Positions 35,237 through 48,478 of a stretch of DNA of 64,000 bases are shown here, one piece after another. The notes under the pieces were generated by a model. That model worked only from the letters and a program-made list of their open reading frames with translations, was not told the DNA's origin and made no database searches. The DNA lies in NCBI GenBank assembly GCA_965655465.1, contig CBFHGY010000003.1, positions 12,354 through 76,353 on the forward strand, given 5' to 3'. The first letter of the stretch is position 1; every line of letters starts with the position of its first letter. Source of the stretch: Bacteroidia bacterium. GTDB lineage: Bacteria; Bacteroidota; Bacteroidia; NS11-12g; UBA955. Both the position numbers and the translations under genes were made by a program.

Positions 35237-36061
35237 TCAATCCACAATCTCCACTATCGACAACACCATCTCTGGATAAATCAATACCCCGTCATCTCCA
35301 TTTGTGCGGCGGATTTGTACCTTTATTGTTAGGCTCGAACTTGAACTATTATCATACACCCCACTAATCGGAAACAACATGGCTTCCCGAGCACCCGTTC
35401 CCGTTCCCTGAACATATAACTGCCTCTTCGCCTGTAACGTACTCGTAGTACTGCCATCGTTGATGGTTAAAATTGCCTCGTTCTCATCGTCGCTACCGGA
35501 TGTAGCTTGACCCCGTATACTCGAACGTGTATCGTAGCGAATCCACAATCTCGAACTGCTCGAAACCGGGGTATAAGAGTAACTGATTACATCGGTATAA
35601 CTCGTTGAATTAATCGTGACATTACTCGAAAAATTCAAATCACTCGCATCTAATAAAACCTGCCGCAATACCTGCCCCTTTGCCGTACCTCGAACAAAGC
35701 CGCTTGCCTTCAAATTGCCGCTTACATGTAATGCCTCCGCAGGCGTCCCTGTAATTCCAATACCTACATTTCCTCCATTGGGCTGCAACCTCAGACCATC
35801 TACATCGCTGTAATCGCCCTTATTCCTGGATTGAAGCCAAACTGCGTCTGTGGCCAACTGTAACCCAAGGTCCAAGGTAGTTGTGCCCAAGCTTCCACCG
35901 ATACGTAAAAATCCATTACCCGAACTGCCAGTATTGGATACATCCGAAGCCGCTGCTTGAATTTCAAGGGTGTTTTTAGGGGTTGTGGTACCCACTCCCA
36001 ACTGTGCCTTCAAGGAAACAGCTGTTGCGAAAATTGCAAATAATAATTCCCCTTTTTTCAT
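35237..36061 (-). CDS. Secreted protein, paralog 3 of 3, with a tail-fibre-like N-terminal motif
   Basis: Signal peptide, then QLGVGTTTPKNTLEIQ. It shares blocks with the two upstream genes (LQPNGGNVGIG, GQVLRQVLLDASDL, SYSYTPVSSSSR, LTIKVQI). Confidence 0.6.
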   Translation of the reverse strand: MKKGELLFAIFATAVSLKAQLGVGTTTPKNTLEIQAAASDVSNTGSSGNGFLRIGGSLGTTTLDLGLQLATDAVWLQSRNKGDYSDVDGLRLQPNGGNVGIGITGTPAEALHVSGNLKASGFVRGTAKGQVLRQVLLDASDLNFSSNVTINSTSYTDVISYSYTPVSSSSRLWIRYDTRSSIRGQATSGSDDENEAILTINDGSTTSTLQAKRQLYVQGTGTGAREAMLFPISGVYDNSSSSSLTIKVQIRRTNGDDGVLIYPEMVLSIVEIVD

Positions 36062-36846
36062 CTTGCCACCTCCGTAATCGTTAATAACATATCGGGTTCA
36101 AGGGTAAAAGTATCGTCAATGCCTAATTCCTGAACGTCGATTTTAATTGTGAGCGTGCTGGTACCCGAATTGATATATACTCCGCTAATAGGTAACAATG
36201 AAGTGGCGCGACCTCCGCCTCCACTTGCATTGTCGAAATACGACTGACGGGTTTGGATGGTCGTACTTCCTACCAATAAATAGGAATACCAATCGTCGTT
36301 ACCAGATCCTCCTATGCTATATTTCCCGTTGAAGGCCACAAAAATCTTACTGTTTGAAGATACCGGAGTATAATTATATGATACTATGGTAGATCTTGCA
36401 TTTGCAACCTGTGTATTTCCCGATTTTGACAAATCCGATTCATTGAGCACCACGGTATTCAAAACTTGACCCGCTTGAGCGGCCTTTACGCTTCCGGATA
36501 GATATATATCGCCGTTTACGGTAAGTATTTCACTGCCTTCGCTCCCATTTATGGCTACTTTTCCGCCATTGGGATTTAATAAAAGTGGGTTTGAATTGGA
36601 GTAATTTGAGGCATCACGAGCTTGGATCCATGCATTCGTAGTACCGTTAACACCCGCATCCCCAGCGGCATTCGACCCCGTTTTTTGAATGCGCATCACC
36701 CCATTGGCTGCACTTCCCGATCCCGCAGCTGCTGCAGACACCCCAACAACATCCAAATTATTCACCGGAGCATTCGTTCCAATACCGGTTTGCGCGAGTA
36801 CCGGCAGCACCGTTAATCCACAAACCAAGAATATCATGTTTTTCAT
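36058..36846 (-). CDS. Secreted protein, paralog 2 of 3, with a tail-fibre-like N-terminal motif
   Basis: Signal peptide, then QTGIGTNAPVNNLDV. It shares blocks LLNPNGGKVAING, AGQVLNTVVLNESDL, SYNYTPVSSNSK and LTIKIDV. It overlaps its neighbours by 4 nt. Confidence 0.6.
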   Translation of the reverse strand: MKNMIFLVCGLTVLPVLAQTGIGTNAPVNNLDVVGVSAAAAGSGSAANGVMRIQKTGSNAAGDAGVNGTTNAWIQARDASNYSNSNPLLLNPNGGKVAINGSEGSEILTVNGDIYLSGSVKAAQAGQVLNTVVLNESDLSKSGNTQVANARSTIVSYNYTPVSSNSKIFVAFNGKYSIGGSGNDDWYSYLLVGSTTIQTRQSYFDNASGGGGRATSLLPISGVYINSGTSTLTIKIDVQELGIDDTFTLEPDMLLTITEVAR

Positions 36847-37643
36847 CGTGCGATCTCCTTAATAATTAACGTAGCGTCTGGATAAACGATTAAATTGTCA
36901 TCGGTACTGGTACGATAAGCCGAAACACGAATTGTCAAAGCATTTGTGCCGCTATTTTGATAGTATCCCATTAGAGGAAAGGGCGGATTTCCGCGACCAC
37001 CGCCTCCGCCACTACTCCCCCCATCAAATCGCATGGCATTTGCTTGAACACGCGTTCCCCCAATAGTCAAAAACGTTTCTACAATATCGGAAGCACTACC
37101 ACTTAAAAAAGCCCGCCCGTCGTATTCAACATAAATTTTAGAACTGCTCGAAACGGGAGTGTAGGTATAGGAAACCAAGGTCGTTTCAGAAGTGCCACTT
37201 ACGGTAATGCTGGAACCGAAGTTTAAGTCCGACTCGTCTAAAAATACCATATTAAGAATCTGTCCGGCACCCGCTGCTATCACACTGCCGTTGACCTGAA
37301 CGTTGCCTTGAACCGTTAATTTTTCATCGGGGGAAGTATTACCTACCCCTACGTTTCCGCCATTGGGATTCAACAGCAAGGGCATATTGGAAGTATAATT
37401 GGTGGCATTTCGCGCTTGTAACCATCCATAATTGTCTTTGCTCAAGCCAAAATCTAAAACTCCGTTGGCATTGGTACTCCCCAAACGCAGCACTCCATTT
37501 TGGGAACTTCCCGATTTAGCGGCAGCGGCAGTATCGCCAATTATATCAAAAGCATTTACGGGGGAAGTGGTATTCACACCGACCTGAGCAGATAAGACCG
37601 AACCTCCGACCAAGAGCGCAAATAATGAAACGAATTTCAACAT
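36843..37643 (-). CDS. Secreted protein, paralog 1 of 3, with a tail-fibre-like N-terminal motif
   Basis: Signal peptide, then QVGVNTTSPVNAFDI. It shares blocks LLNPNGGNVGVG, AGQILNMVFLDESDL, SYTYTPVSSSSK and LTIRVSA. Confidence 0.6.
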   Translation of the reverse strand: MLKFVSLFALLVGGSVLSAQVGVNTTSPVNAFDIIGDTAAAAKSGSSQNGVLRLGSTNANGVLDFGLSKDNYGWLQARNATNYTSNMPLLLNPNGGNVGVGNTSPDEKLTVQGNVQVNGSVIAAGAGQILNMVFLDESDLNFGSSITVSGTSETTLVSYTYTPVSSSSKIYVEYDGRAFLSGSASDIVETFLTIGGTRVQANAMRFDGGSSGGGGGRGNPPFPLMGYYQNSGTNALTIRVSAYRTSTDDNLIVYPDATLIIKEIAR

Positions 37644-38441: not shown

Positions 38442-38547
38442 ACAAAATGCAAAGGTAAATCAATCTTAAGACCTTTTAATAAGGCGTGAAAAGTTCCAAG
38501 TGTCTCCTACTTAAGCTGTATATTGCAGCGTTAAAGGGTAGAATTAA

Positions 38548-39651
38548 ATGAATTCGGAAATTTTTAAAAATATCAATAAAATCATAGAGCGAGACAATAA
38601 AACCTCGACCTATAAATTCGCGCTGTTGCGCGGAGTGATTGATATTATCCAAAGCAATTCTCCATATATAAAAATCGAAGGGGAACGGGCTATTTTACCC
38701 ATGGGTTTGCTTATTGAGAATTGGATACTGTATTACTATCCCATCTTAGCAAATAAAATCCCACAGATTTATGGGAAAAATACCCAACTTCAATTCGAGA
38801 CTCATTTAAGTGAAGTAATTGAATTCTATGCAAAAAAAGGAGGGATGTCTGCCTTCTATCGAGATATGCGCAATAATGGCATTGCCGATATCCAAGATAT
38901 TTTCACTCCCTTGGTTAAATCAATGCGAAAGACTATCGCTACTATGCCCATGAAATACATTGGCAAATCGATCTACAATGAAGAATATGCCATTTTCAAG
39001 CCCAATAGCGACACCTATAAAACAACTAAAATATACGACACCCACAGTTTGCTTAACTATTCCGGCACGTTTAGCATTCCACTTGATTATTATGAAGCGT
39101 TTAAACTCTTAGGAAGTTTTATTTCCGGACAAAACACATTATTGTTCAAGTGGGCAGAGTTTTCATACGAAGCATCTGGAAGATCCATTCAAAAAGAAAC
39201 CGTTTTCGAACAAATGACCGAGTATGCCGTGGTAGACCGAAATATCACCGCAACAAAGCGCATTTATAGTGAATTATTGGAACGTCAGAAAAAGATCTTT
39301 TGTGTATGGACCGGTGAAAAAACAAGTTCATTTGATATCGATCATATGCTGCCATTTTCTGTTTGGAAAAATAACGATTTATGGAATCTGCTTCCAGCAA
39401 AAACATCGGTTAATCGTGAAAAAAGTGACAAAATCCCTACCCCTGAATTAATCCATAAAAGACAAGACATTATTTTCGAATACTGGGATCTTCTAAAGAA
39501 TAGTTTTGAATTTCGATTCGAAAAAGAAATTGAATTCGCCCTTATTGGAGATAAGCAGAATAATTGGAAAGATGCAGCAATTTCGCAAATTCAAAATAAC
39601 TGCGAATACCTTATCGAATCGCGCGGATATACCCCATGGAGTCCTAAATAG
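38548..39651 (+). CDS. Protein with a C-terminal HNH-type nuclease motif and an uncharacterised N-terminal domain of about 270 aa
   Basis: C-terminal CVWTGEKTSSFDIDHMLPFSVWKNNDLWNLLPAKTSVNREKSDK matches the HNH pattern (C..G...D.DH..P.S...N..N.LLP...N..K). The N-terminal region (KTSTYKFALLRGVIDII...) has no motif I can assign. Confidence 0.6.
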   Translation: MNSEIFKNINKIIERDNKTSTYKFALLRGVIDIIQSNSPYIKIEGERAILPMGLLIENWILYYYPILANKIPQIYGKNTQLQFETHLSEVIEFYAKKGGMSAFYRDMRNNGIADIQDIFTPLVKSMRKTIATMPMKYIGKSIYNEEYAIFKPNSDTYKTTKIYDTHSLLNYSGTFSIPLDYYEAFKLLGSFISGQNTLLFKWAEFSYEASGRSIQKETVFEQMTEYAVVDRNITATKRIYSELLERQKKIFCVWTGEKTSSFDIDHMLPFSVWKNNDLWNLLPAKTSVNREKSDKIPTPELIHKRQDIIFEYWDLLKNSFEFRFEKEIEFALIGDKQNNWKDAAISQIQNNCEYLIESRGYTPWSPK

Positions 39652-39659
39652 TCCAATAT

Positions 39660-40781
39660 TTAAATAAAACAGGCATTACAACCCTCGCCCTCGTTATCGA
39701 GTACAATATCCTTCCATGATTCCTTTTTAATAAGCTTCTCCCTCTGCGTGCGCTTGTAATGATCTCTCTTAATTTGAGCTACACGTTCTGGCCTAGATAA
39801 ATCCTCCAATCGCTCTTCGCTCCAGGAATAACCATCCTTTTCATAATCCATAGCTGTAGCAAATAATTCCGGATGTGTCTCTAAAAGCCATACCCACTCA
39901 ATTTTCTGCTGATAAAAACAGAAAAAGCAACCACTGCGACTTCTAGAATATGTTCCTTTTACTATTTCACCGTCTAATTCTACCTCGTATTCCAAAGGCG
40001 TGTAATACGCCGGAATTCCCACCCCACTTTCTTCTAATATCCTGTAAATATCGTCAATACCAAAATTCGAATCCTTATAAATCAAAGGAAAATCTTCCAA
40101 TTTTCCCACCGGATAATCTGTCGTTTTCAAAAAGTCAAATACTACTTTATTAAAAGCCACCACATCAATATCCAACAAATCCGATACCTTTTGTTTTTGA
40201 CCGTATCGCATGGATATCGGCTGCTCTAAATAATACAATACCGCATTTAACTTATCGCCCTCAACATGACTTTTATAACTCTCTATCAAAGAGGAAATCC
40301 GGCTATTGGCGAATGTTTTAGTAATTACATCTTCGCTCCAAATATTTCGACGAAATGGGAAAATGCTCTGAATATTCTCCTTTTTAGAAATATATCCCTC
40401 TCTGTCTTCATCTCCTCGTATGCCCACATAAGAAATGGTAGGATTCATTCCTATCTCTTTCTCGAATGGATCTAATTTCATCTTCTTTGTGCACCACCTC
40501 GATGTAGAAGAGGGCAAATACCCTCCGTAAACAGCCAAAAAATGATCGAAGGAAGAAGACTCCGACGTTGCAAATACATCTACCGACTTATACTCCGTTA
40601 TATTCTTTCCCAATACTGAATTTAAACGCTCAATCAAATCATAGGTTTCTTTGAGCTCCTTACCGGTATCACAGGTATAATAATTGATATTTAAAGCCGG
40701 AAAATTCTGACTCATGTAAATAGCCAAAGCCGCACTATCTTTCCCTCCTGAAATCCCTAAAACATGATTGATCGTATTCAT
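39660..40781 (-). CDS. Phosphoadenosine phosphosulfate (PAPS) reductase family PP-loop ATP pyrophosphatase with a C-terminal Cys cluster
   Basis: PP-loop motif LGISGGKDSAALAIYM and an RWCTKKMKLDP block typical of the PAPS reductase family. The C-terminus has CFFC ... CNAC (two CxxC). 373 aa. Confidence 0.65.
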   Translation of the reverse strand: MNTINHVLGISGGKDSAALAIYMSQNFPALNINYYTCDTGKELKETYDLIERLNSVLGKNITEYKSVDVFATSESSSFDHFLAVYGGYLPSSTSRWCTKKMKLDPFEKEIGMNPTISYVGIRGDEDREGYISKKENIQSIFPFRRNIWSEDVITKTFANSRISSLIESYKSHVEGDKLNAVLYYLEQPISMRYGQKQKVSDLLDIDVVAFNKVVFDFLKTTDYPVGKLEDFPLIYKDSNFGIDDIYRILEESGVGIPAYYTPLEYEVELDGEIVKGTYSRSRSGCFFCFYQQKIEWVWLLETHPELFATAMDYEKDGYSWSEERLEDLSRPERVAQIKRDHYKRTQREKLIKKESWKDIVLDNEGEGCNACFI

Positions 40782-40836
40782 AGTCCCCCAGCAAGAATAA
40801 TCGAGCCAACTGGATTAAACAATGTCCAAATAAAAA

Positions 40837-41262
40837 ATGAATGTATTTTTGCTTAAATCATTTCAAACCACAATCTTGAATCAACAAAATAACAATACAT
40901 GCCTCTTTTGCTACACAGATCGCGAAATACTCATTGAGAATGAGCTTGCCTTTGCGATTTTCGATAAATTTCCTGTTGTGGAAGGACATATTTTGATTAT
41001 TCCCAAAAGACACTTCGACAATTATTTTGAAATAACGCAAGCCGAACTAGAAGCGAACCATGCGATTATCCTTGAATTAAAACAACAATTACAAGAAAAA
41101 GACGCAAGTATTTCGGGGTTCAACATAGGAATAAACCAAGGCATCGATGCGGGTCAAACGGTTATGCATTGCCACATACATTTAATTCCCCGTCGATTGG
41201 GTGATGTTGCCGAACCACGCGGTGGCATCCGGCATTTAATACCAGGGAAGGGGTTTTATTGA
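40837..41262 (+). CDS. HIT (histidine triad) family nucleotide hydrolase/transferase
   Basis: Histidine triad HCHIHLIP. CxxC-like N-terminal zinc motif (CLFC). 141 aa. It is divergent from the PAPS-reductase-like gene across a 55-bp spacer. Confidence 0.75.
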   Translation: MNVFLLKSFQTTILNQQNNNTCLFCYTDREILIENELAFAIFDKFPVVEGHILIIPKRHFDNYFEITQAELEANHAIILELKQQLQEKDASISGFNIGINQGIDAGQTVMHCHIHLIPRRLGDVAEPRGGIRHLIPGKGFY

Positions 41263-41301: not shown

Positions 41302-41616
41302 CTAAAGCCCATACCGCAGCCACTCGTAACCAGTCCGTGTCCACACGCGGAGGAGCTCCCGCTCTTGTTCGCTGAAATCCCCGTTGTTGAATCCTTCTAA
41401 ATCTGTAATGTCCATGTTAAAATCCCCCAATTCATCGATTTCCCAAGAAACCCAATCCGGATTTACATGTAATGTTCCTACACAGGGAAAGGACTTTCCC
41501 GCACGAATTAAATTTCCCATAATACAACGTTGCCCTCCATTACCCCCACGTATTTTTACAGGAGGTTTGGGAGGAGACACCTGTTTTTTGATACGTTTAG
41601 TAGTACTCACTTTCAT
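41302..41616 (-). CDS. Hypothetical small protein (104 aa). Strand assignment is uncertain, because an overlapping 103-aa ORF exists on the + strand at 41384..41695.
   Basis: ORF only. It has a basic N-terminus (KRIKKQVSPPKPPVKIRGGNGGQR). No assignable motif. Confidence 0.25.
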   Translation of the reverse strand: MKVSTTKRIKKQVSPPKPPVKIRGGNGGQRCIMGNLIRAGKSFPCVGTLHVNPDWVSWEIDELGDFNMDITDLEGFNNGDFSEQERELLRVWTRTGYEWLRYGL

Positions 41617-42877: not shown

Positions 42878-45718
42878 ATGAAAGCATTAAACATCAAAAA
42901 GTACTTATTAATCGGAATGATTTTAGGACTTGGATGGAACTTTAATTTATATGCACAAACGATTACCAGCGTATCGTTACAAGGAGCTAAGCCTACAGGA
43001 ACCAATACATGGGATGTTGATTACATAAATGGAGCAAATTCTATTATTGAAAAAGAAGTTTCCATAGGTTATTCGAATCATACGAATAATGGAAATGGTA
43101 ATGGAAAAGATTATTTTTATTACACACAATCAGGAACAAGCCTTTGTTGGGAAGTATTACAAGGAGGTTCAGGCTCAAACTCATGGAAAACATTGCCATT
43201 TTGTGAATCAGCCAATGGTGGATTAAACAATGATCCGACACAAGGAACACATATAACTTATTTCCGGTATAACTCTGGTAAAACTGGTTGTGCTACCACA
43301 GGTACTTTCACAGAAACGTTGTCCATTGGATGGTCAACAGTAAGCGGAAGTTCTTGCTCTGGATTTAAAACGGGTACCACACCGTTAGAATTAGAGGTAA
43401 CTGTACAGGTTGTAACCGACAATCTTTACACTTGGTCAGAACCAACATCGGGAACAGACAGCTCGTATAAAATTGCTGGCAACTGGACCCCTACTCGAAC
43501 CTCTCCTAGTACAGACGATATTTTAGTTGTAGACTTAGCACAAGGTTCCAATCGAAACACGACGATTTACATGGACGGTGTATCTGATCAAATAAATCAA
43601 TTTAAAATATTTCCGAATAATTATGTCACCTTTAAATGCTCTACCAGCACCAACACGGGTAATTGGACCACAGGGAATGTCACATCTTCTGACGGCGACG
43701 ATTTTGTTTTAGATTCCCTAGCTGGGATGCGCTTTGACGCAGGAACACTTAACTTGAATATACCCTCAGGCAATACGGCTATGTTCAAGTCTGACCTTAA
43801 CGTGGCTGGAGGCACCTTAAATATTAATGGACCTGGATCCATCACCCACAGAAAAAACATCAACACAACAGGTGGAGCATTGAATTACAAATCTTCAGCT
43901 ACCACTACGCTTAATCTAGCTGGTAAAGACACCAAACTATCGGGTACCGGGGGTTCATTGTATATCGATTCCACCGTAAATGTGGTTATTGGAAACGGCG
44001 CGACATCGAGCTACACGCTTGAAAGAATACTTCCTATAATTTCTAATCTTTCACTTAAATCGGGTACAACCCTATATTCTAATGCTCCTACTTCTTACAC
44101 ATCGGTAAGTGCTATTAATGCATGGACGCCCTTTTTACAATTAAAGGCAACCCCTAAACCTAACTCTACAGCCCACGGTCAAATTGTAGAGATATTGGGG
44201 AATGCCACTATCGATGGTGGCGCACAATTTGAGATTTATAACAACAAACAACGTGCTTACAGAGCTTTTGGTATTCCTTTAAAAAATGGAACACTAATTC
44301 CACAATTTACAGATGATATTGTCGTAACCGGTACCGTTACTGGAAGCAATGCCAATGATTTCACTACCACCTGTTCCTACTGCACGCATTCCATGTTCCA
44401 GTGGAACGAAAGCACCAGTTCATGGACGCCATATGCTTCAGGCAATGATCTCACGAATATTCCTTTGGGAACTGGAATCCTTACCTTCTTCAGAGGTGCT
44501 ATTGGAAACGGATTGGGTGATACATCCGCATCAGCTAACGAACAAATCATCGACTTTAAAGGTGAACTTACCGTAGGGAGGCCCAGTATTGTACTCAACA
44601 ACGGTGGAACTGGAGCCTTAAAAGGCTATAATTTAATAGGCAACCCCTACCCCTCTGCCATTGACTTACGATTAGTTTATGAATCTAATAAGTCCAAAAT
44701 TTTACCCAGATTCTATTTCTACGATGCCATTGCCCGCAGATACAACGAGTGGGATAGTGTAACAAGCAACGGAAATTCTACGACGCCCAAGAAAAACGGA
44801 ACTACCAAATTCCAAAATCCTGGAAATAGTGTAAAAAAAGAAGCCCGAATATTAGATGCCGGTGGAGCCGTATTCGTTGTGGTAAGCTCCAATAACGCCA
44901 CAGAAACCATAACCTTCAACGAGTCACATAAAGAGCGTAGCTTACGCTCAGCAACCAAACATTTTTCAAGCGGTGTTCAAGAAGAAAATACCGTACCATG
45001 CAACGAATTGAAAGGAATGTTGCAATACCAAAAAACCGACTCCTTTCCTGAAAACGATGGTTTTACCCTAGAATTTGATATCGAAGATGGCAATCCCAAA
45101 GGCGATATCATGGATATGAATAAGTTGTATGCAGGATACTTAGGACTAGGTACCTTAACTTCTAACGACTATTGGTTATCTATAGACCGCCGCAATAAAA
45201 TTGCAGAAATTGGAGAAACCAAATCTATTCCTTTAAAGGTAGCCTATCCCAAGGAAAGTCCTGCAGCCGTGGAATTGGTGTTTCAAACTTGCGATGAGAC
45301 TAACAAATCTTACGATATTCAATTATTCGATAAATTAACTCAAAAGGCCCATCCCGTGAATAACGGCAGTGTATATCCATTTACAGCTCAAACCGCTGAA
45401 GAGAAAAAACCGGATCGCTTTGAATTGCTCTTTACCGGTATTGAAAAACAGAATAATATTTCAAGTCAACACGTAAATCCCATCGCTGTTTTCCCAAATC
45501 CTTCAGAAAATGGTGTGTTTTATGTTCTTAACAAAGAACAAAACACAAAAACAGCTTACGAAGTATTCGAACTGAATGGTCAAGTTATCACCAAAGGCAC
45601 CTTGGAGTCTAGCAATCAAGTAAATACCATAAATCTAAGCGATGCTCCCAAAGGCATCTATATAATCAAATTCACTTCAAACAATCAAACTTCAACTCAA
45701 AAAGTACAACTTTATTAA
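42878..45718 (+). CDS. Large secreted T9SS cargo protein (946 aa), tandem paralog A
   Basis: Signal peptide (LLIGMILGLGWNFNLYAQ). The passenger region is Thr/Ser/Gly/Asn-rich. The C-terminal Por sorting domain is FPNPSENGVFYV...KGIYIIKFTSNNQTSTQKVQLY. Confidence 0.7.
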   Translation: MKALNIKKYLLIGMILGLGWNFNLYAQTITSVSLQGAKPTGTNTWDVDYINGANSIIEKEVSIGYSNHTNNGNGNGKDYFYYTQSGTSLCWEVLQGGSGSNSWKTLPFCESANGGLNNDPTQGTHITYFRYNSGKTGCATTGTFTETLSIGWSTVSGSSCSGFKTGTTPLELEVTVQVVTDNLYTWSEPTSGTDSSYKIAGNWTPTRTSPSTDDILVVDLAQGSNRNTTIYMDGVSDQINQFKIFPNNYVTFKCSTSTNTGNWTTGNVTSSDGDDFVLDSLAGMRFDAGTLNLNIPSGNTAMFKSDLNVAGGTLNINGPGSITHRKNINTTGGALNYKSSATTTLNLAGKDTKLSGTGGSLYIDSTVNVVIGNGATSSYTLERILPIISNLSLKSGTTLYSNAPTSYTSVSAINAWTPFLQLKATPKPNSTAHGQIVEILGNATIDGGAQFEIYNNKQRAYRAFGIPLKNGTLIPQFTDDIVVTGTVTGSNANDFTTTCSYCTHSMFQWNESTSSWTPYASGNDLTNIPLGTGILTFFRGAIGNGLGDTSASANEQIIDFKGELTVGRPSIVLNNGGTGALKGYNLIGNPYPSAIDLRLVYESNKSKILPRFYFYDAIARRYNEWDSVTSNGNSTTPKKNGTTKFQNPGNSVKKEARILDAGGAVFVVVSSNNATETITFNESHKERSLRSATKHFSSGVQEENTVPCNELKGMLQYQKTDSFPENDGFTLEFDIEDGNPKGDIMDMNKLYAGYLGLGTLTSNDYWLSIDRRNKIAEIGETKSIPLKVAYPKESPAAVELVFQTCDETNKSYDIQLFDKLTQKAHPVNNGSVYPFTAQTAEEKKPDRFELLFTGIEKQNNISSQHVNPIAVFPNPSENGVFYVLNKEQNTKTAYEVFELNGQVITKGTLESSNQVNTINLSDAPKGIYIIKFTSNNQTSTQKVQLY

Positions 45719-45721
45719 TAA

Positions 45722-48478
45722 ATGAAAAACTCTTGGCTATTATTATTCATCTTCTTCCAAATTTCCATTGTCAAAGCGCAATCCATTACAGGAATTATTG
45801 CTCAAGGAGCAAGCGCTACTAGCACCAACGGTGTTTGGAGCCTTGAATGGGATGATAATGAAGATACTACCTCTAAAATAGTTAAAGAAATAACCCTTAC
45901 GCTTTCTGGAAGCACAAACGGTAAGAAGTTAATTTTTGATGCCAGTAATGCGAGCGCCGATTGGCAAATCCAATTTGGCAGTAGAAATTCCAAAGCCTGG
46001 AAAACCTTTTGTCAGGAAACTCCAGGCTTAGGAAGTAACAAAACGGATTACACCTTCTCGATAAGAGATTTAAGCACATCTTTAGGCACACATACGAATA
46101 CAATATATGTCGGATTTGGAAACAATTGTAATAACGGATTTACTCCGCTTGTAACTATTAACATTTCGGTAAATGTAACCGACAAAAAGGTATACACTTG
46201 GGAAGGCCGAAGCGGTATAGATTCTTTTTATGATACTGACGAAAACTGGTACCCGGTAAGAACAAATCCCAATGTCAATGATATTCTTGTAGTGGACCTC
46301 GGCTCATCAACGAATAAAGTGAATACAACCATAGATATTTCTGGAGTAAGCGAAAATATTGGACAATTTAAAATCTACCCCTATAATCATGTTGATTTCA
46401 AATGCACCACGGATGCCAATTGGACTGTAGGTAGACCTTCCTCATTGAGTGGAGTAGATTTTAATGTTTCCTTAAATTCCGACATTCGTAAAACCGGTGC
46501 CGGTGAACTTGAAATTATTGTACCCGCTAATAATTCTTTAGATATCGATGGCAGCATTACCACCCTTGCTGGAGATTTATTATTCTCAGGTGCTGGTACC
46601 CATAATATTTCAGGTAATATAAATACCCTTGGCGGTTTGCTCAATTTCACCCCCAGTAGTGGTACAAATACCTTATATTTAGATGGCAGCAAACAAGTTC
46701 TTTCGGGAAACAGTTATGTGAGTGGAACTCCTACCTTATACATCGATACCAATTTCAACGTTACCGTTGGTACTGCCTCTACTAGTCCCGTTGATACACT
46801 AACATTACAACGCACACTTCCGATTTATTCGGTAGTTACCCTAAGTCCTGGAACTCGCATTATTTCCAATAATCCTGCTTCAAGTTCTGAATCAGATTGG
46901 AATGCCTGGGAACCCTATTTCCAGTTAAAAGCCCCTCAATTTAACCAAGCGGTTAAACGCGGACAATTGAACGTGGTTCCCACTAGTTCAGAAATTGTTG
47001 GGGGAAGCTTATTCGAAATTTATGGAACCAATGTTAGAGCTTATCGCATGATTGGCCTCCCCTTCGCAAATGGGGTGCACCTTTCTCAATTTTCAGATGA
47101 CATAGATCTAACCGGTACCTTAAATGGCACTACCAATAAAGATTCCTTTGAAACCAGTTGCAGCGTATGCAAAACTTCCGCATTTTATTGGAATGAATCA
47201 TCAGGCTCTTGGAATGCCTATGTTTCTGGCGCTACTGCAAATATTTTACCTAAAGGAAATGGAAGTTTGATTTTCTTTAGAGGTCGGAAATCCAATGGTT
47301 TGGGAGATACCGGTGCTACTGCTAACGAGGGCATTATTGATTTCAAAGGCAAGTTACAGGTGGGCAATTATACGCATACCCTCACGAAATCATCCGGTTC
47401 TGGTGCTTTAACAGGCTTTAATTTAGTAGCAAATCCATACCCATCGAATATTACCTTTGACGAAGTCTACTCCAAACACAAAGGAAGGGTAAAACCAAGA
47501 TATAGAACTTACGATGCACGCCGTAAAACCTATAATATCTGGGATTCAACCGTTCAGAACAGTCCTGGTAAATCTGGAGCCCGAAAATTTGCAAGTTCAA
47601 GCAACCAACAAGCCAAAATCATTGCCGCTGGAGCTGCATTTTTTATTGAAGCTGAGGCCAATAATGAAACAATTTCATTTACCGAAAGCATGAAAACTCC
47701 GTTTACTGAAGCTACAACCGCTCAACATGGAGTGCAAGAACTAAACGAAACCCCCTGCAATCATTTATTGGTGAATTTAGCATACCGCAGCGATACCCTT
47801 TTCGACTCCGACAATGTTACCATTCAATTTGATATTGAAAACCCCACCGTAACTCACAATGCTACAGAAACAGACGTAGTAGAGTTTTATGCGGGATACC
47901 TAGGTATCGGAACGCTATCTCCAGAAGGAACCTGGCTCACCATAGACCGCAGACCTAAAATGGCCGAAATCAATGAAAGTTATACCTTACCGCTTAAAAC
48001 CGTTTATCCTAAAGATGCCCTAAAACAAATGGTAATGGATTTCAATTATTGTACTGAAGAACAATCCAATTATCAGATTTTATTAATCGACAAAGTAAAG
48101 AATACAAGTACCGAAGTAAAGGATCTTATGAGTTATTCTTTTGAGATTTCAAGTTCTGAAGAAAAGCGTGACAATCGTTTTGAACTATTATTTACTGGAA
48201 TAGAAAAACAAAATTCAACGGAGAATCTATCACATACATCATTAAGCATTTTCCCAAATCCTTCAGATAACGGAGAATTCTTTATCGCCAATCCCCAAAA
48301 TCATGCTATAAATACCCTACAAATTCTAGATCAAAGCGGTAAAATCGTTCTGGAATCATCGATTGAATCAAAACAAAGTCTTATCCATATGAACATCGAA
48401 ACCTTAAAGTCGGGTTGGTATATTCTGCGTATAAATAGCCTTACAAACAGTGAAAACCACCCCATAATCATCAAATAA
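45722..48478 (+). CDS. Large secreted T9SS cargo protein (918 aa), tandem paralog B
   Basis: Signal peptide (LLLFIFFQISIVKAQ). Blocks are shared with paralog A (YTWxxxSGxDSxY..NWxPxRTxP..DILVVDL, QFKI(F/Y)P, ELLFTGIEKQN). The C-terminal Por sorting domain is FPNPSDNGEFFI...SGWYILRINS. Confidence 0.7.
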   Translation: MKNSWLLLFIFFQISIVKAQSITGIIAQGASATSTNGVWSLEWDDNEDTTSKIVKEITLTLSGSTNGKKLIFDASNASADWQIQFGSRNSKAWKTFCQETPGLGSNKTDYTFSIRDLSTSLGTHTNTIYVGFGNNCNNGFTPLVTINISVNVTDKKVYTWEGRSGIDSFYDTDENWYPVRTNPNVNDILVVDLGSSTNKVNTTIDISGVSENIGQFKIYPYNHVDFKCTTDANWTVGRPSSLSGVDFNVSLNSDIRKTGAGELEIIVPANNSLDIDGSITTLAGDLLFSGAGTHNISGNINTLGGLLNFTPSSGTNTLYLDGSKQVLSGNSYVSGTPTLYIDTNFNVTVGTASTSPVDTLTLQRTLPIYSVVTLSPGTRIISNNPASSSESDWNAWEPYFQLKAPQFNQAVKRGQLNVVPTSSEIVGGSLFEIYGTNVRAYRMIGLPFANGVHLSQFSDDIDLTGTLNGTTNKDSFETSCSVCKTSAFYWNESSGSWNAYVSGATANILPKGNGSLIFFRGRKSNGLGDTGATANEGIIDFKGKLQVGNYTHTLTKSSGSGALTGFNLVANPYPSNITFDEVYSKHKGRVKPRYRTYDARRKTYNIWDSTVQNSPGKSGARKFASSSNQQAKIIAAGAAFFIEAEANNETISFTESMKTPFTEATTAQHGVQELNETPCNHLLVNLAYRSDTLFDSDNVTIQFDIENPTVTHNATETDVVEFYAGYLGIGTLSPEGTWLTIDRRPKMAEINESYTLPLKTVYPKDALKQMVMDFNYCTEEQSNYQILLIDKVKNTSTEVKDLMSYSFEISSSEEKRDNRFELLFTGIEKQNSTENLSHTSLSIFPNPSDNGEFFIANPQNHAINTLQILDQSGKIVLESSIESKQSLIHMNIETLKSGWYILRINSLTNSENHPIIIK

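Follow-up and report, generated by a model that had tools for sequence, protein, structure and literature searches.

Gene organization at the locus and domain structure of X-HNH

We analysed a stretch of 64,000 nucleotides from a Bacteroidia bacterium (contig CBFHGY010000003.1), hereafter called the window, around the open reading frame (ORF) at 38548-39651. This ORF codes for a predicted nuclease, named here X-HNH, in which a family-specific domain (X) is followed by an HNH core, and it lies in a block with genes for an SspD-like protein and a HIT-family hydrolase. Ratios of nonsynonymous to synonymous substitution (dN/dS, or ω) were calculated against locus L168, a 90%-identical relative. 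The features of the block are the following:

38542..41262: three-gene block X-HNH / SspD / HIT, conserved as a unit in loci L168-L170
38548..39651, + strand: X-HNH protein gene, 367 amino acids, ATG start; 1321 homologues; dN/dS 0.068 against L168
38548..39291, + strand: X domain, family-specific alpha/beta, residues 1-248
39301..39438, + strand: Cas9-type HNH (beta-beta-alpha-metal) core, residues 252-297, with putative catalytic residues D265-H266, N280 and N289
39439..39651, + strand: helical tail at the C-terminus, residues 298-367, and stop codon
39660..40781, - strand: orphan SspD-like PP-loop gene (PAPS-reductase family), 373 amino acids; PADLOC SspD 2.3e-83; Pfam PAPS_reduct 3.3e-08
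40837..41262, + strand: Hint/Fhit-type HIT nucleotide hydrolase gene, 141 amino acids; Pfam HIT 6.4e-22; dN/dS 0.10

The ORF was confirmed at these coordinates and on this strand, and residues 18-40 of its translation read KTSTYKFALLRGVIDIIQSNSPY. The homologues retrieved at E<=1e-3 are nearly all of 366-375 amino acids, and the best name found among them was "HNH endonuclease domain-containing protein". X-HNH is a large unnamed family, mainly of Bacteroidota. The 1321 homologues and the dN/dS of 0.07 against the 90%-identical relative indicate that the ORF is real and not a chance one, and we are almost certain that it encodes a conserved, predicted nuclease carrying an unplaced domain. A promoter and terminator scan remained at chance level and was run with no model for Bacteroidota promoters.

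The only Pfam family matching X-HNH was HNH_4 (PF13395), at residues 260-297 (35.2 bits for a cut-off of 22, E 1.2e-08), and membership in this family, as judged by sequence, is through the nuclease core only. The matches in NCBIfam, PADLOC and PDB sequences were also confined to the core and were chiefly to the HNH of Cas9 (phmmer E 1.9e-06 against the Cas9 HNH domain), and Foldseek with the full-length model (pLDDT 77) retrieved from the PDB Cas9 HNH domains exclusively. In the alignment, D265-H266, N280 and N289 occupy the catalytic and metal-binding positions of Cas9; the four residues are invariant across 42 homologues, and the HNH motif was found in 85 of the 88 loci of the census described below. 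The nuclease core is of the Cas9 type and predicted to be catalytically intact, corroborating the HNH finger proposed in the first-pass annotation. That annotation had assigned the finger to the last 45 residues and left about 320 residues in front of it, and both figures proved wrong: the core, at residues ~252-297, is followed by a helical tail of about 70 residues, so that the unassigned N-terminal region has about 250. The first part of the tail aligns with the helices that come after the Cas9 HNH core, and its conserved residues are Y312, W313, F324, C352, Y354, R359, G360 and W364. Among PADLOC models, the core matched Cas9, PtuB and PDC-M01B and no system model was matched over the full length, while distant X-HNH proteins had no match at all in PADLOC-DB v2. 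The PHROG matches were restricted to the core, with E values of at least 1.7e-4.

Alignment of the homologues showed that X is conserved to the same degree as the HNH core, and the residues invariant across architectures are D16, K18, T21-Y22-K23, A25-L26, E57, W59, Y62, W202 and R231. An exhaustive profile search with X alone recovered 652 representatives (50% clustering, E<=1e-3). X matched zero families in Pfam, NCBIfam, PADLOC and PHROGs, and the best E value in a profile search of PDB sequences was 0.58. The domain-only model (pLDDT 85, pTM 0.82) retrieved nothing significant with Foldseek in the PDB (best E 0.06, probability 0.10, TM 0.14) and no relative among the viral structures of BFVD. 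The earlier view that the N-terminal region carries no placeable motif thus holds in all of these searches, including the structure prediction and Foldseek comparison that it had proposed, and X was not matched with confidence to any homing-endonuclease DNA-binding domain or other non-defence family. Three specific assignments of X were considered and set aside. A triple winged helix-turn-helix (wHTH) domain of the SspB/DUF4007 type was ruled out by an hhalign probability of 0.5%. A ScoMcrA-like sulfur-binding domain, considered from R-G and Y-P motifs, was not supported by the PDB profile search or by Foldseek. As for a PD-(D/E)xK nuclease, the predicted model places its candidate 'ERDxK' motif at a helix end and loop, and not in a beta-strand core.

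A stable pair of X-HNH and HIT genes

The census took in the window, 7 loci found by contig look-up and 80 genome loci, 88 in all. A HIT-containing gene was present in 73 of them, in every case on the same strand as X-HNH and immediately 3' of it, and in 55 loci it overlaps the X-HNH stop codon by 13 nucleotides. About 50 of these partners are fusions of 284-297 amino acids between a class-I S-adenosylmethionine (SAM) methyltransferase (MTase) and HIT, called MT-HIT, and HIT stands alone in about 20 loci, the window included, 19 of which also have no SspD. The HxHxHxx triad was found in 71 of the 73 HIT partners and SAM motif I in 50 of the 51 MT-HIT fusions. The HIT protein of the window shows the CxxC, HCHIHLI and GDxxxPxGG (tail) motifs, and the solved structures closest to it are Hint, Fhit and Ap4A-phosphorylase proteins. 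It shares 48% identity with the HIT half of the fusions and is orthologous to it. In a plasmid of Hymenobacter, a MazG/PRA-PH-like NTP pyrophosphohydrolase occupies the downstream position of HIT. Gene order, translational coupling and domain fusion together indicate that the stable unit consists of X-HNH and a nucleotide-directed accessory enzyme, a partner (HIT with or without the MTase) that was missing from the earlier account of X-HNH.

The MTase of MT-HIT is homologous to the one fused to X-HNH in other proteins described below (hhalign 98.9%). Neither contains the DPPY/NPPF ((D/N/S)PP(Y/F)) or PCQ motifs of DNA methyltransferases. The MTase resembles small-molecule class-I enzymes (Methyltransf_23/25/11, TehB/TPMT), and in many members it passes the thresholds of TehB/TPMT, a chalcogen methyltransferase.

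The nature of these partners also bears on an alternative in which X-HNH is an abortive-infection nuclease gated by a nucleotide signal. X would bind a small nucleotide ligand that accumulates on infection or stress and switch HNH on, and HIT, the MazG-like enzyme or the MTase would remove this ligand or hide it, so as to turn the nuclease off or filter out noise, with a RecA-dependent trigger added in the S24 variants mentioned below. The partners are all typical free-nucleotide enzymes (HIT, the NTP pyrophosphohydrolase of Hymenobacter and the small-molecule-type MTase), they appear interchangeable (HIT only, MT-HIT, MTase fused without HIT), and coupled translation is a usual feature of toxin and safety pairs. 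Moreover, the window HIT matches the PADLOC model of ThsC (1.7e-09), the HIT accessory of Thoeris type II that has been hypothesised to be an off-switch (PMC8565338). However, the cassette includes no conserved signal-generating enzyme, X shows no similarity to the nucleotide-sensor domains SAVED, CARF and STING in Pfam and Foldseek searches, and this alternative offers no explanation for the recurrent, specific link with ssp operons. We consider this alternative unlikely.

Several observations concern the pair in particular loci. The window HIT subfamily (40837-41262, + strand) strongly matches phrog_19494, a phage family of unknown function (1.5e-26). Just past the window HIT, at 41302-41616 (- strand), there is an ORF of 104 amino acids with a 113-amino-acid homologue in the same place beside the HIT gene of L008, a locus with a 63%-identical X-HNH; it matched no family in Pfam, NCBIfam, PADLOC and PHROGs and is absent from L168, and it could be an occasional fourth gene. 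The Hymenobacter plasmid (NZ_CP095057.1; L177:4627-6467) carries a small HTH_17 DNA-binding gene, a distant X-HNH and the MazG/PRA-PH-like gene replacing HIT, and in plasmids of Deinococcus and Tolypothrix a small gene of 79-84 amino acids lies immediately 5' of X-HNH. At L139:6205-8839, a 204-amino-acid HNH protein without X is followed by MT-HIT and then by SspD, an arrangement indicating that the partnership of MT-HIT (and SspD) extends beyond X-containing nucleases. In Mucilaginibacter aquatilis (L001/L025:10001-11386), X-HNH has no HIT partner and is followed by a 57-amino-acid transposase HTH fragment, with PDC-M36A (DUF8370) upstream and a CBASS operon (SMODS and SAVED-HNH) just downstream.

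The X domain in other protein architectures

X also occurs in MTase-X-HNH fusions of about 580 amino acids, in MTase-X-HNH-S24 peptidase proteins of about 760, in a 2400-amino-acid protein with a DUF559-type restriction endonuclease and a DpdF-like helicase, and in a DUF3427/PDC-M57B protein of 1023. The MTase-X-HNH family gave 606 matches in several phyla, and its genes stand alone in defence islands, near NERD, AbiEii, Bub and toxin-antitoxin genes. All the architectural forms are located in defence islands. Part of the earlier proposal, that the N-terminal region is a specificity or sensor domain, gains from this distribution, since the reuse of X in restriction-type proteins fits such a module. 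X shows no similarity to the known domains that read phosphorothioate (PT) DNA, the sulfur-binding domain (SBD) and SRA of ScoMcrA and DUF262 of SspE. The fused MTase matches PADLOC mad2 at 2e-16, mad2 being the predicted DNA methylase of MADS (10.1101/2023.03.30.534895). P0221, P0226, P0253 and about 50 relatives end in an S24 peptidase domain, in which a LexA-type cleavage motif, GR(L/V)AAG, accompanies a Ser/Lys dyad; the S24 domain of P0221 has a LexA-like GRLAAG site and GDSM...K, with the catalytic Ser and Lys. These motifs suggest that the nuclease may undergo RecA/SOS-triggered processing.

These proteins bear on an alternative akin to restriction-modification (R-M), in which X is a target-recognition domain common to a modifying enzyme and to HNH; host sites that carry the modification would be spared, and invader DNA without it would be cut. 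The part of modifier would fall to the class-I MTase, whether joined to HIT or to X-HNH, or in the window to SspD, and the S24 domain would provide SOS-triggered alleviation of restriction, for which P0221 has the LexA-like motif and the catalytic residues. In its favour are the single polypeptides with X placed between MTase and nuclease, encoded by self-sufficient genes in defence islands; the mad2 match, the homology between the MTases of MT-HIT and MTase-X-HNH, and the precedent of BREX type 4, where a PAPS-reductase takes the place of a methyltransferase, are in agreement with it. The MTase, however, has no DPPY/NPPF or PCQ motif and resembles small-molecule enzymes, about 20 loci, the window among them, have HIT and no MTase (19 of them also without SspD), and HIT is given no role. 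In addition, we know of no DNA modification carried out by SspD without SspB and SspC. This alternative is improbable in our estimate.

Recurrent association with ssp genes

In the window, the SspD gene is convergent with X-HNH, with 8 nucleotides between the stop codons, and its translation has an intact SGGKDS PP-loop and visible C-terminal Cys motifs. The block has the same order and orientation in L168 (X-HNH(+)/SspD(-)/HIT(+)), where DNA homology to the window begins at 38542. A tblastx synteny map showed that the two loci are the same chromosomal site, with syntenic flanks and with cargo that differs on both sides of the block. X-HNH, SspD and HIT are all under purifying selection, the dN/dS values being 0.068, 0.017 and 0.10, respectively. 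The SspD proteins of the window and L168 are 93% identical in amino acids, and the ω of 0.017 indicates that the window SspD is no decaying remnant. No match to SspB or SspC was found by tblastn over the whole window. A terminal inverted repeat at the block ends (38541-38561 / 41168-41188) was considered and rejected: in L168 it drops to 14 of 21 positions, repeats as good as this one arise at chance frequency, and its right arm consists of the codons of the HIT catalytic motif.

After HIT, no specific neighbour of X-HNH recurs as often as the ssp genes. An SspB-like gene lies immediately 5' of X-HNH in 12 loci. The SspC beside the cassette has its full length in L024; in L039, L049 and L084 it is truncated, with 489, 553 and 284 amino acids left. 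In L038, SspD is immediately 3' of the pair, and X-HNH, MT-HIT and SspD form one co-directional operon with 3-nucleotide spacing. About 14 loci are adjacent to ssp genes, and none has a complete ssp set. A survey from the side of SspD found SspC in 61 of 79 loci and SspB in 39, and only one (L139, without SspB and SspC) has an HNH-MT-HIT neighbour. The window SspD clusters within the SspDs of ordinary Bacteroidota SspBCD operons, among which the pair-associated SspDs are polyphyletic, and the ssp-adjacent X-HNH genes are dispersed over at least 7 places of the X-HNH tree. Comparison of L039 with L024 showed that the cassette genes are 86-88% identical (synonymous divergence, dS, 0.5-0.9), whereas the flanking SspC and SspB are only 59% and 42% identical, with dS saturated. 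The far higher similarity of the cassette indicates that it moved into different ssp operons. Taken together, the polyphyly of SspD, the scattering of X-HNH, the L039/L024 contrast and the incomplete sets indicate that the link to Ssp is no single accident.

The same data can be seen from the side of selfishness or counter-defence. The cassette would then spread in a homing-like manner, or be tolerated only where PT-writing operons are broken, and the association would reflect targeting or inactivation of Ssp systems and not cooperation. It is of much more recent origin than the ssp genes that flank it, and it went into different ssp operons at different sites, 3' of full-length SspC in L024 and of truncated SspC in L039, L049 and L084; the adjacent ssp sets are all incomplete, against SspB, SspC and SspD together in about half of the ordinary SspD loci; and its left boundary is within a few nucleotides of the X-HNH start codon. 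On the other hand, about 85% of the insertions are outside ssp genes with no common target sequence seen, there are no terminal repeats apart from the chance-level candidate in the HIT codons, strong purifying selection acts on the orphan SspD in the window (ω 0.017), and two or three catalytically intact genes are kept, unlike in minimal homing endonuclease genes. Phage, intron and intein contexts are also absent: tblastn of X-HNH gave no match in 50,697 phage records, and a phage origin was rejected on this result. We regard a selfish cassette as quite improbable.

The conservation of the window block under purifying selection without SspB or SspC raises one more alternative, an unusual PT writer. 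Here X-HNH would replace SspB (the DNA-binding nickase) and SspC, and with SspD and a housekeeping cysteine desulfurase would install phosphorothioates, HIT proofreading adenylated intermediates. The co-directional operon of L038 is in line with this proposal. SspD and DndC are both PP-loop ATP pyrophosphatases, and housekeeping desulfurases can stand in for SspA. Aprataxin-type HIT enzymes take AMP off DNA ends. Nevertheless, the family has SspD beside the pair in no more than 2-3 lineages, SspD is missing where SspB or SspC adjoins the pair, and the P-loop ATPase (SspC, DndD or BrxC) that PT synthesis is reported to require (PMC12914056) is absent here. Such a writer seems very unlikely to us.

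Our survey also uncovered other arrangements around ssp-related genes. In L002, L004 and L046, PDC-M11A (500 amino acids) and PDC-M11B (128 amino acids; L002:9615-10001, L004:9606-9992, L046:9605-9991) are immediately 5' of X-HNH/MT-HIT, and PDC-M11B shares a BLAST cluster with the N-terminal half of SspB/DUF4007. PDC-M11 may derive from Ssp, or it may belong to a larger unit of four genes. A 362-amino-acid gene of L002, considered as a divergent SspD, showed no similarity to it. Cluster 5, which lies directly 5' of the pair in L083 and L036, was considered as the PT-linked helicase PbeA and rejected; its best match is a type IV methyl-directed restriction endonuclease, so that it is not PT-specific. 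Among the SspD-side loci of environmental Bacteroidota (L088-L167), the usual layout is SspB-SspC-SspD without an adjacent SspA, and a PbeA-like helicase is near 16 of the 79, which suggests a pairing of Ssp writers with Pbe-type effectors.

Genomic setting

The neighbours of the cassette include CBASS, PDC-M11, PDC-M36, DpnI/Dam, PDC-S07 and toxin-antitoxin modules, as well as restriction genes of types I, II and IV. The gene 5' of X-HNH is co-directional with it in 57 of 76 loci, and 22 matches are in plasmids. In the window, three tandem paralogues (35237-37643, - strand; 274, 262 and 266 amino acids) with stop/start overlaps and N-terminal signal-like sequences sit between the syntenic left flank and the block; they are absent from L168 and therefore belong to the variable island. 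To the right, at 42878-48478 (+ strand), there are two adjacent large paralogues of 946 and 918 amino acids, whose C-termini look like type IX secretion sorting domains, as judged by an FPNPS... motif.

Proposed role of the cassette

Our best explanation, which we hold tentatively, is that X-HNH supplies the nuclease subunit to a so far undescribed cassette of defence islands, which moves horizontally and has a probable link to phosphorothioate DNA. The parts of this explanation differ in strength: an anti-invader, defence-type role is favoured on balance, and a PT-related mechanism is possible but somewhat doubtful. On this explanation, X would recognise the target or act as a sensor, and in this way direct or gate the cutting of DNA by HNH, and HIT and/or the MTase would act on a nucleotide-linked substrate for host safety or for processing of the products. 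The repeated association with ssp genes makes a PT-related substrate most likely; X would read, and HIT would handle, something related to PT DNA. By analogy, the system could be a PT-reading nuclease acting like SspE or ScoMcrA, and HIT could remove sulfur or AMP from nucleotide or DNA-end adducts. Four points argue for PT reading: HINT1 desulfurates (d)NMPS, and HINT-type enzymes turn dNMPS into dNMP and H2S (PMC8775712); the MTase is TehB/TPMT-like; PT-reading HNH nucleases are encoded beside dnd genes (PMC10853773); and a PT operon of Bacteroidota, in Bacteroides, holds an HNH gene, "mcrA", that is dispensable for PT synthesis (PMC12914056).

Some of the data weigh against this explanation. 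About 85% of the loci have no ssp gene within 10 kb, and ssp adjacency could partly reflect defence-island hotspots. With the pair in just one of 79 SspD loci and no complete SspBCD adjoining it, X-HNH is no regular Ssp effector like SspE, and the keeping of an orphan SspD is left unaccounted for. X has no homology to the PT-binding domains SBD, SRA and DUF262, and its lack of a known fold was established with Foldseek alone, on predicted models. The MTase-X-HNH fusions have no HIT or ssp neighbours, and the role proposed for HIT comes from the general chemistry of the family; the HIT subfamily also has phage relatives (phrog_19494). The overall reading of the first-pass annotation is, in consequence of these and the preceding results, partly supported. 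The type IV or Ssp/Dnd setting that it suggested stands as regards the defence islands and the physical link to ssp genes. X-HNH is, however, not a stand-alone type IV enzyme, its near-constant partner being HIT, and it is never beside a complete SspBCD.

A more specific version would make the cassette a phosphorothioate 'reader-eraser', in which X recognises PT-DNA, HNH nicks it, and the partner enzymes do away with the sulfur mark or with what arises from it. Sulfur would be taken off 5'-thiophosphate ends or dNMPS by HIT, thiophosphate would be S-methylated by the TehB/TPMT-like MTase, and dNTPαS would be cleared by the MazG-like enzyme. We think this version decidedly unlikely. If true, the cassette would be the first case of an enzymatic system whose dedicated task is to remove sulfur from the DNA backbone or to detoxify it, and this version would account for the ssp-linked cassettes being in, or replacing, broken ssp operons.

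Sensor-swappable nuclease effectors are a known design in bacterial immunity. What is new here is the combination of a large conserved domain without detectable relatives and an unusual, near-constant partner, HIT with or without a small-molecule-type MTase. No description of a module of X-HNH with HIT or of SspD with HIT was found in PADLOC v2 or in the open-access literature searched, comparative papers on Dnd, Ssp and BREX included. The family is large, with more than 1300 sequence clusters of the two-gene form and more than 600 of the fused form, in several phyla and in plasmids. The repeated, independent entry into ssp operons and the maintained orphan SspD point to an unexplored interaction with DNA phosphorothioation, a modification for which the reading, turnover and countering of the marks are still poorly understood. 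Being of two or three genes, the cassette is easy to test.

Comparison with known systems

The Ssp phosphorothioation system is represented in the window by SspD, while SspB (DUF4007) and SspC (a BrxC-like ATPase) are absent from its 64 kb. The HNH domain of Cas9 is the best match of residues ~235-320 in both sequence and structure, with the same D-H...N...N, but the nuclease domain alone is in common: X-HNH, of 367 amino acids, has no RuvC, REC or PI domain and no CRISPR context. Homing endonucleases differ in that X-HNH has none of their Pfam DNA-binding modules and its context is a chromosomal defence island. The sister MTase-X-HNH proteins recall type IIG or single-polypeptide R-M enzymes and mad2 of MADS in joining a methyltransferase, a putative recognition domain and a nuclease; the MTases of these relatives, however, have no motifs of DNA amino- or C5-methyltransferases, and the window protein has no MTase. 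Thoeris type II, through ThsC, offers another case of a HIT-family protein attached to a defence module, but there is no ThsA or ThsB here, the partner is an HNH nuclease, and the role of ThsC is itself only hypothesised.

Parallels are also found among systems related to PT. The BREX type 4 operon of Bacteroides salyersiae (brxP-mcrA-brxC-brxZ-brxL) has an HNH 'mcrA' between PT-writer genes, which PT synthesis does not require and which is presumed to serve in restriction (PMC12914056); its likeness to X-HNH is by description only, and the X-HNH loci differ from that operon, which is a complete PT writer with no HIT gene reported. SspE (PMC9646914, PMC13251355) is likewise a two-part defence protein, in which an N-terminal sensor precedes an HNH-like nuclease, and its gene lies next to ssp genes. 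It consists, however, of DUF262 (an NTPase) and DUF1524, both missing from X-HNH, which does not match the PADLOC SspE model; SspE accompanies complete SspABCD and has no HIT partner, whereas X-HNH occurs only with incomplete ssp sets and mostly with none. The PT-dependent type IV enzymes of the ScoMcrA type (SBD/wHTH, SRA and HNH), often located just 3' of dnd genes, share with X-HNH an HNH nuclease with an N-terminal reader and physical linkage to PT-modification genes (PMC10853773). X differs from their reader domains in having no sequence or Foldseek similarity to SBD or SRA, and X-HNH as a whole differs in its Cas9/HNH_4 subtype of HNH, in its near-constant HIT partner and in being linked to ssp instead of dnd. 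In its mode of action, X-HNH would come closest to effectors that join a sensor to a nuclease, such as SspE or ScoMcrA.

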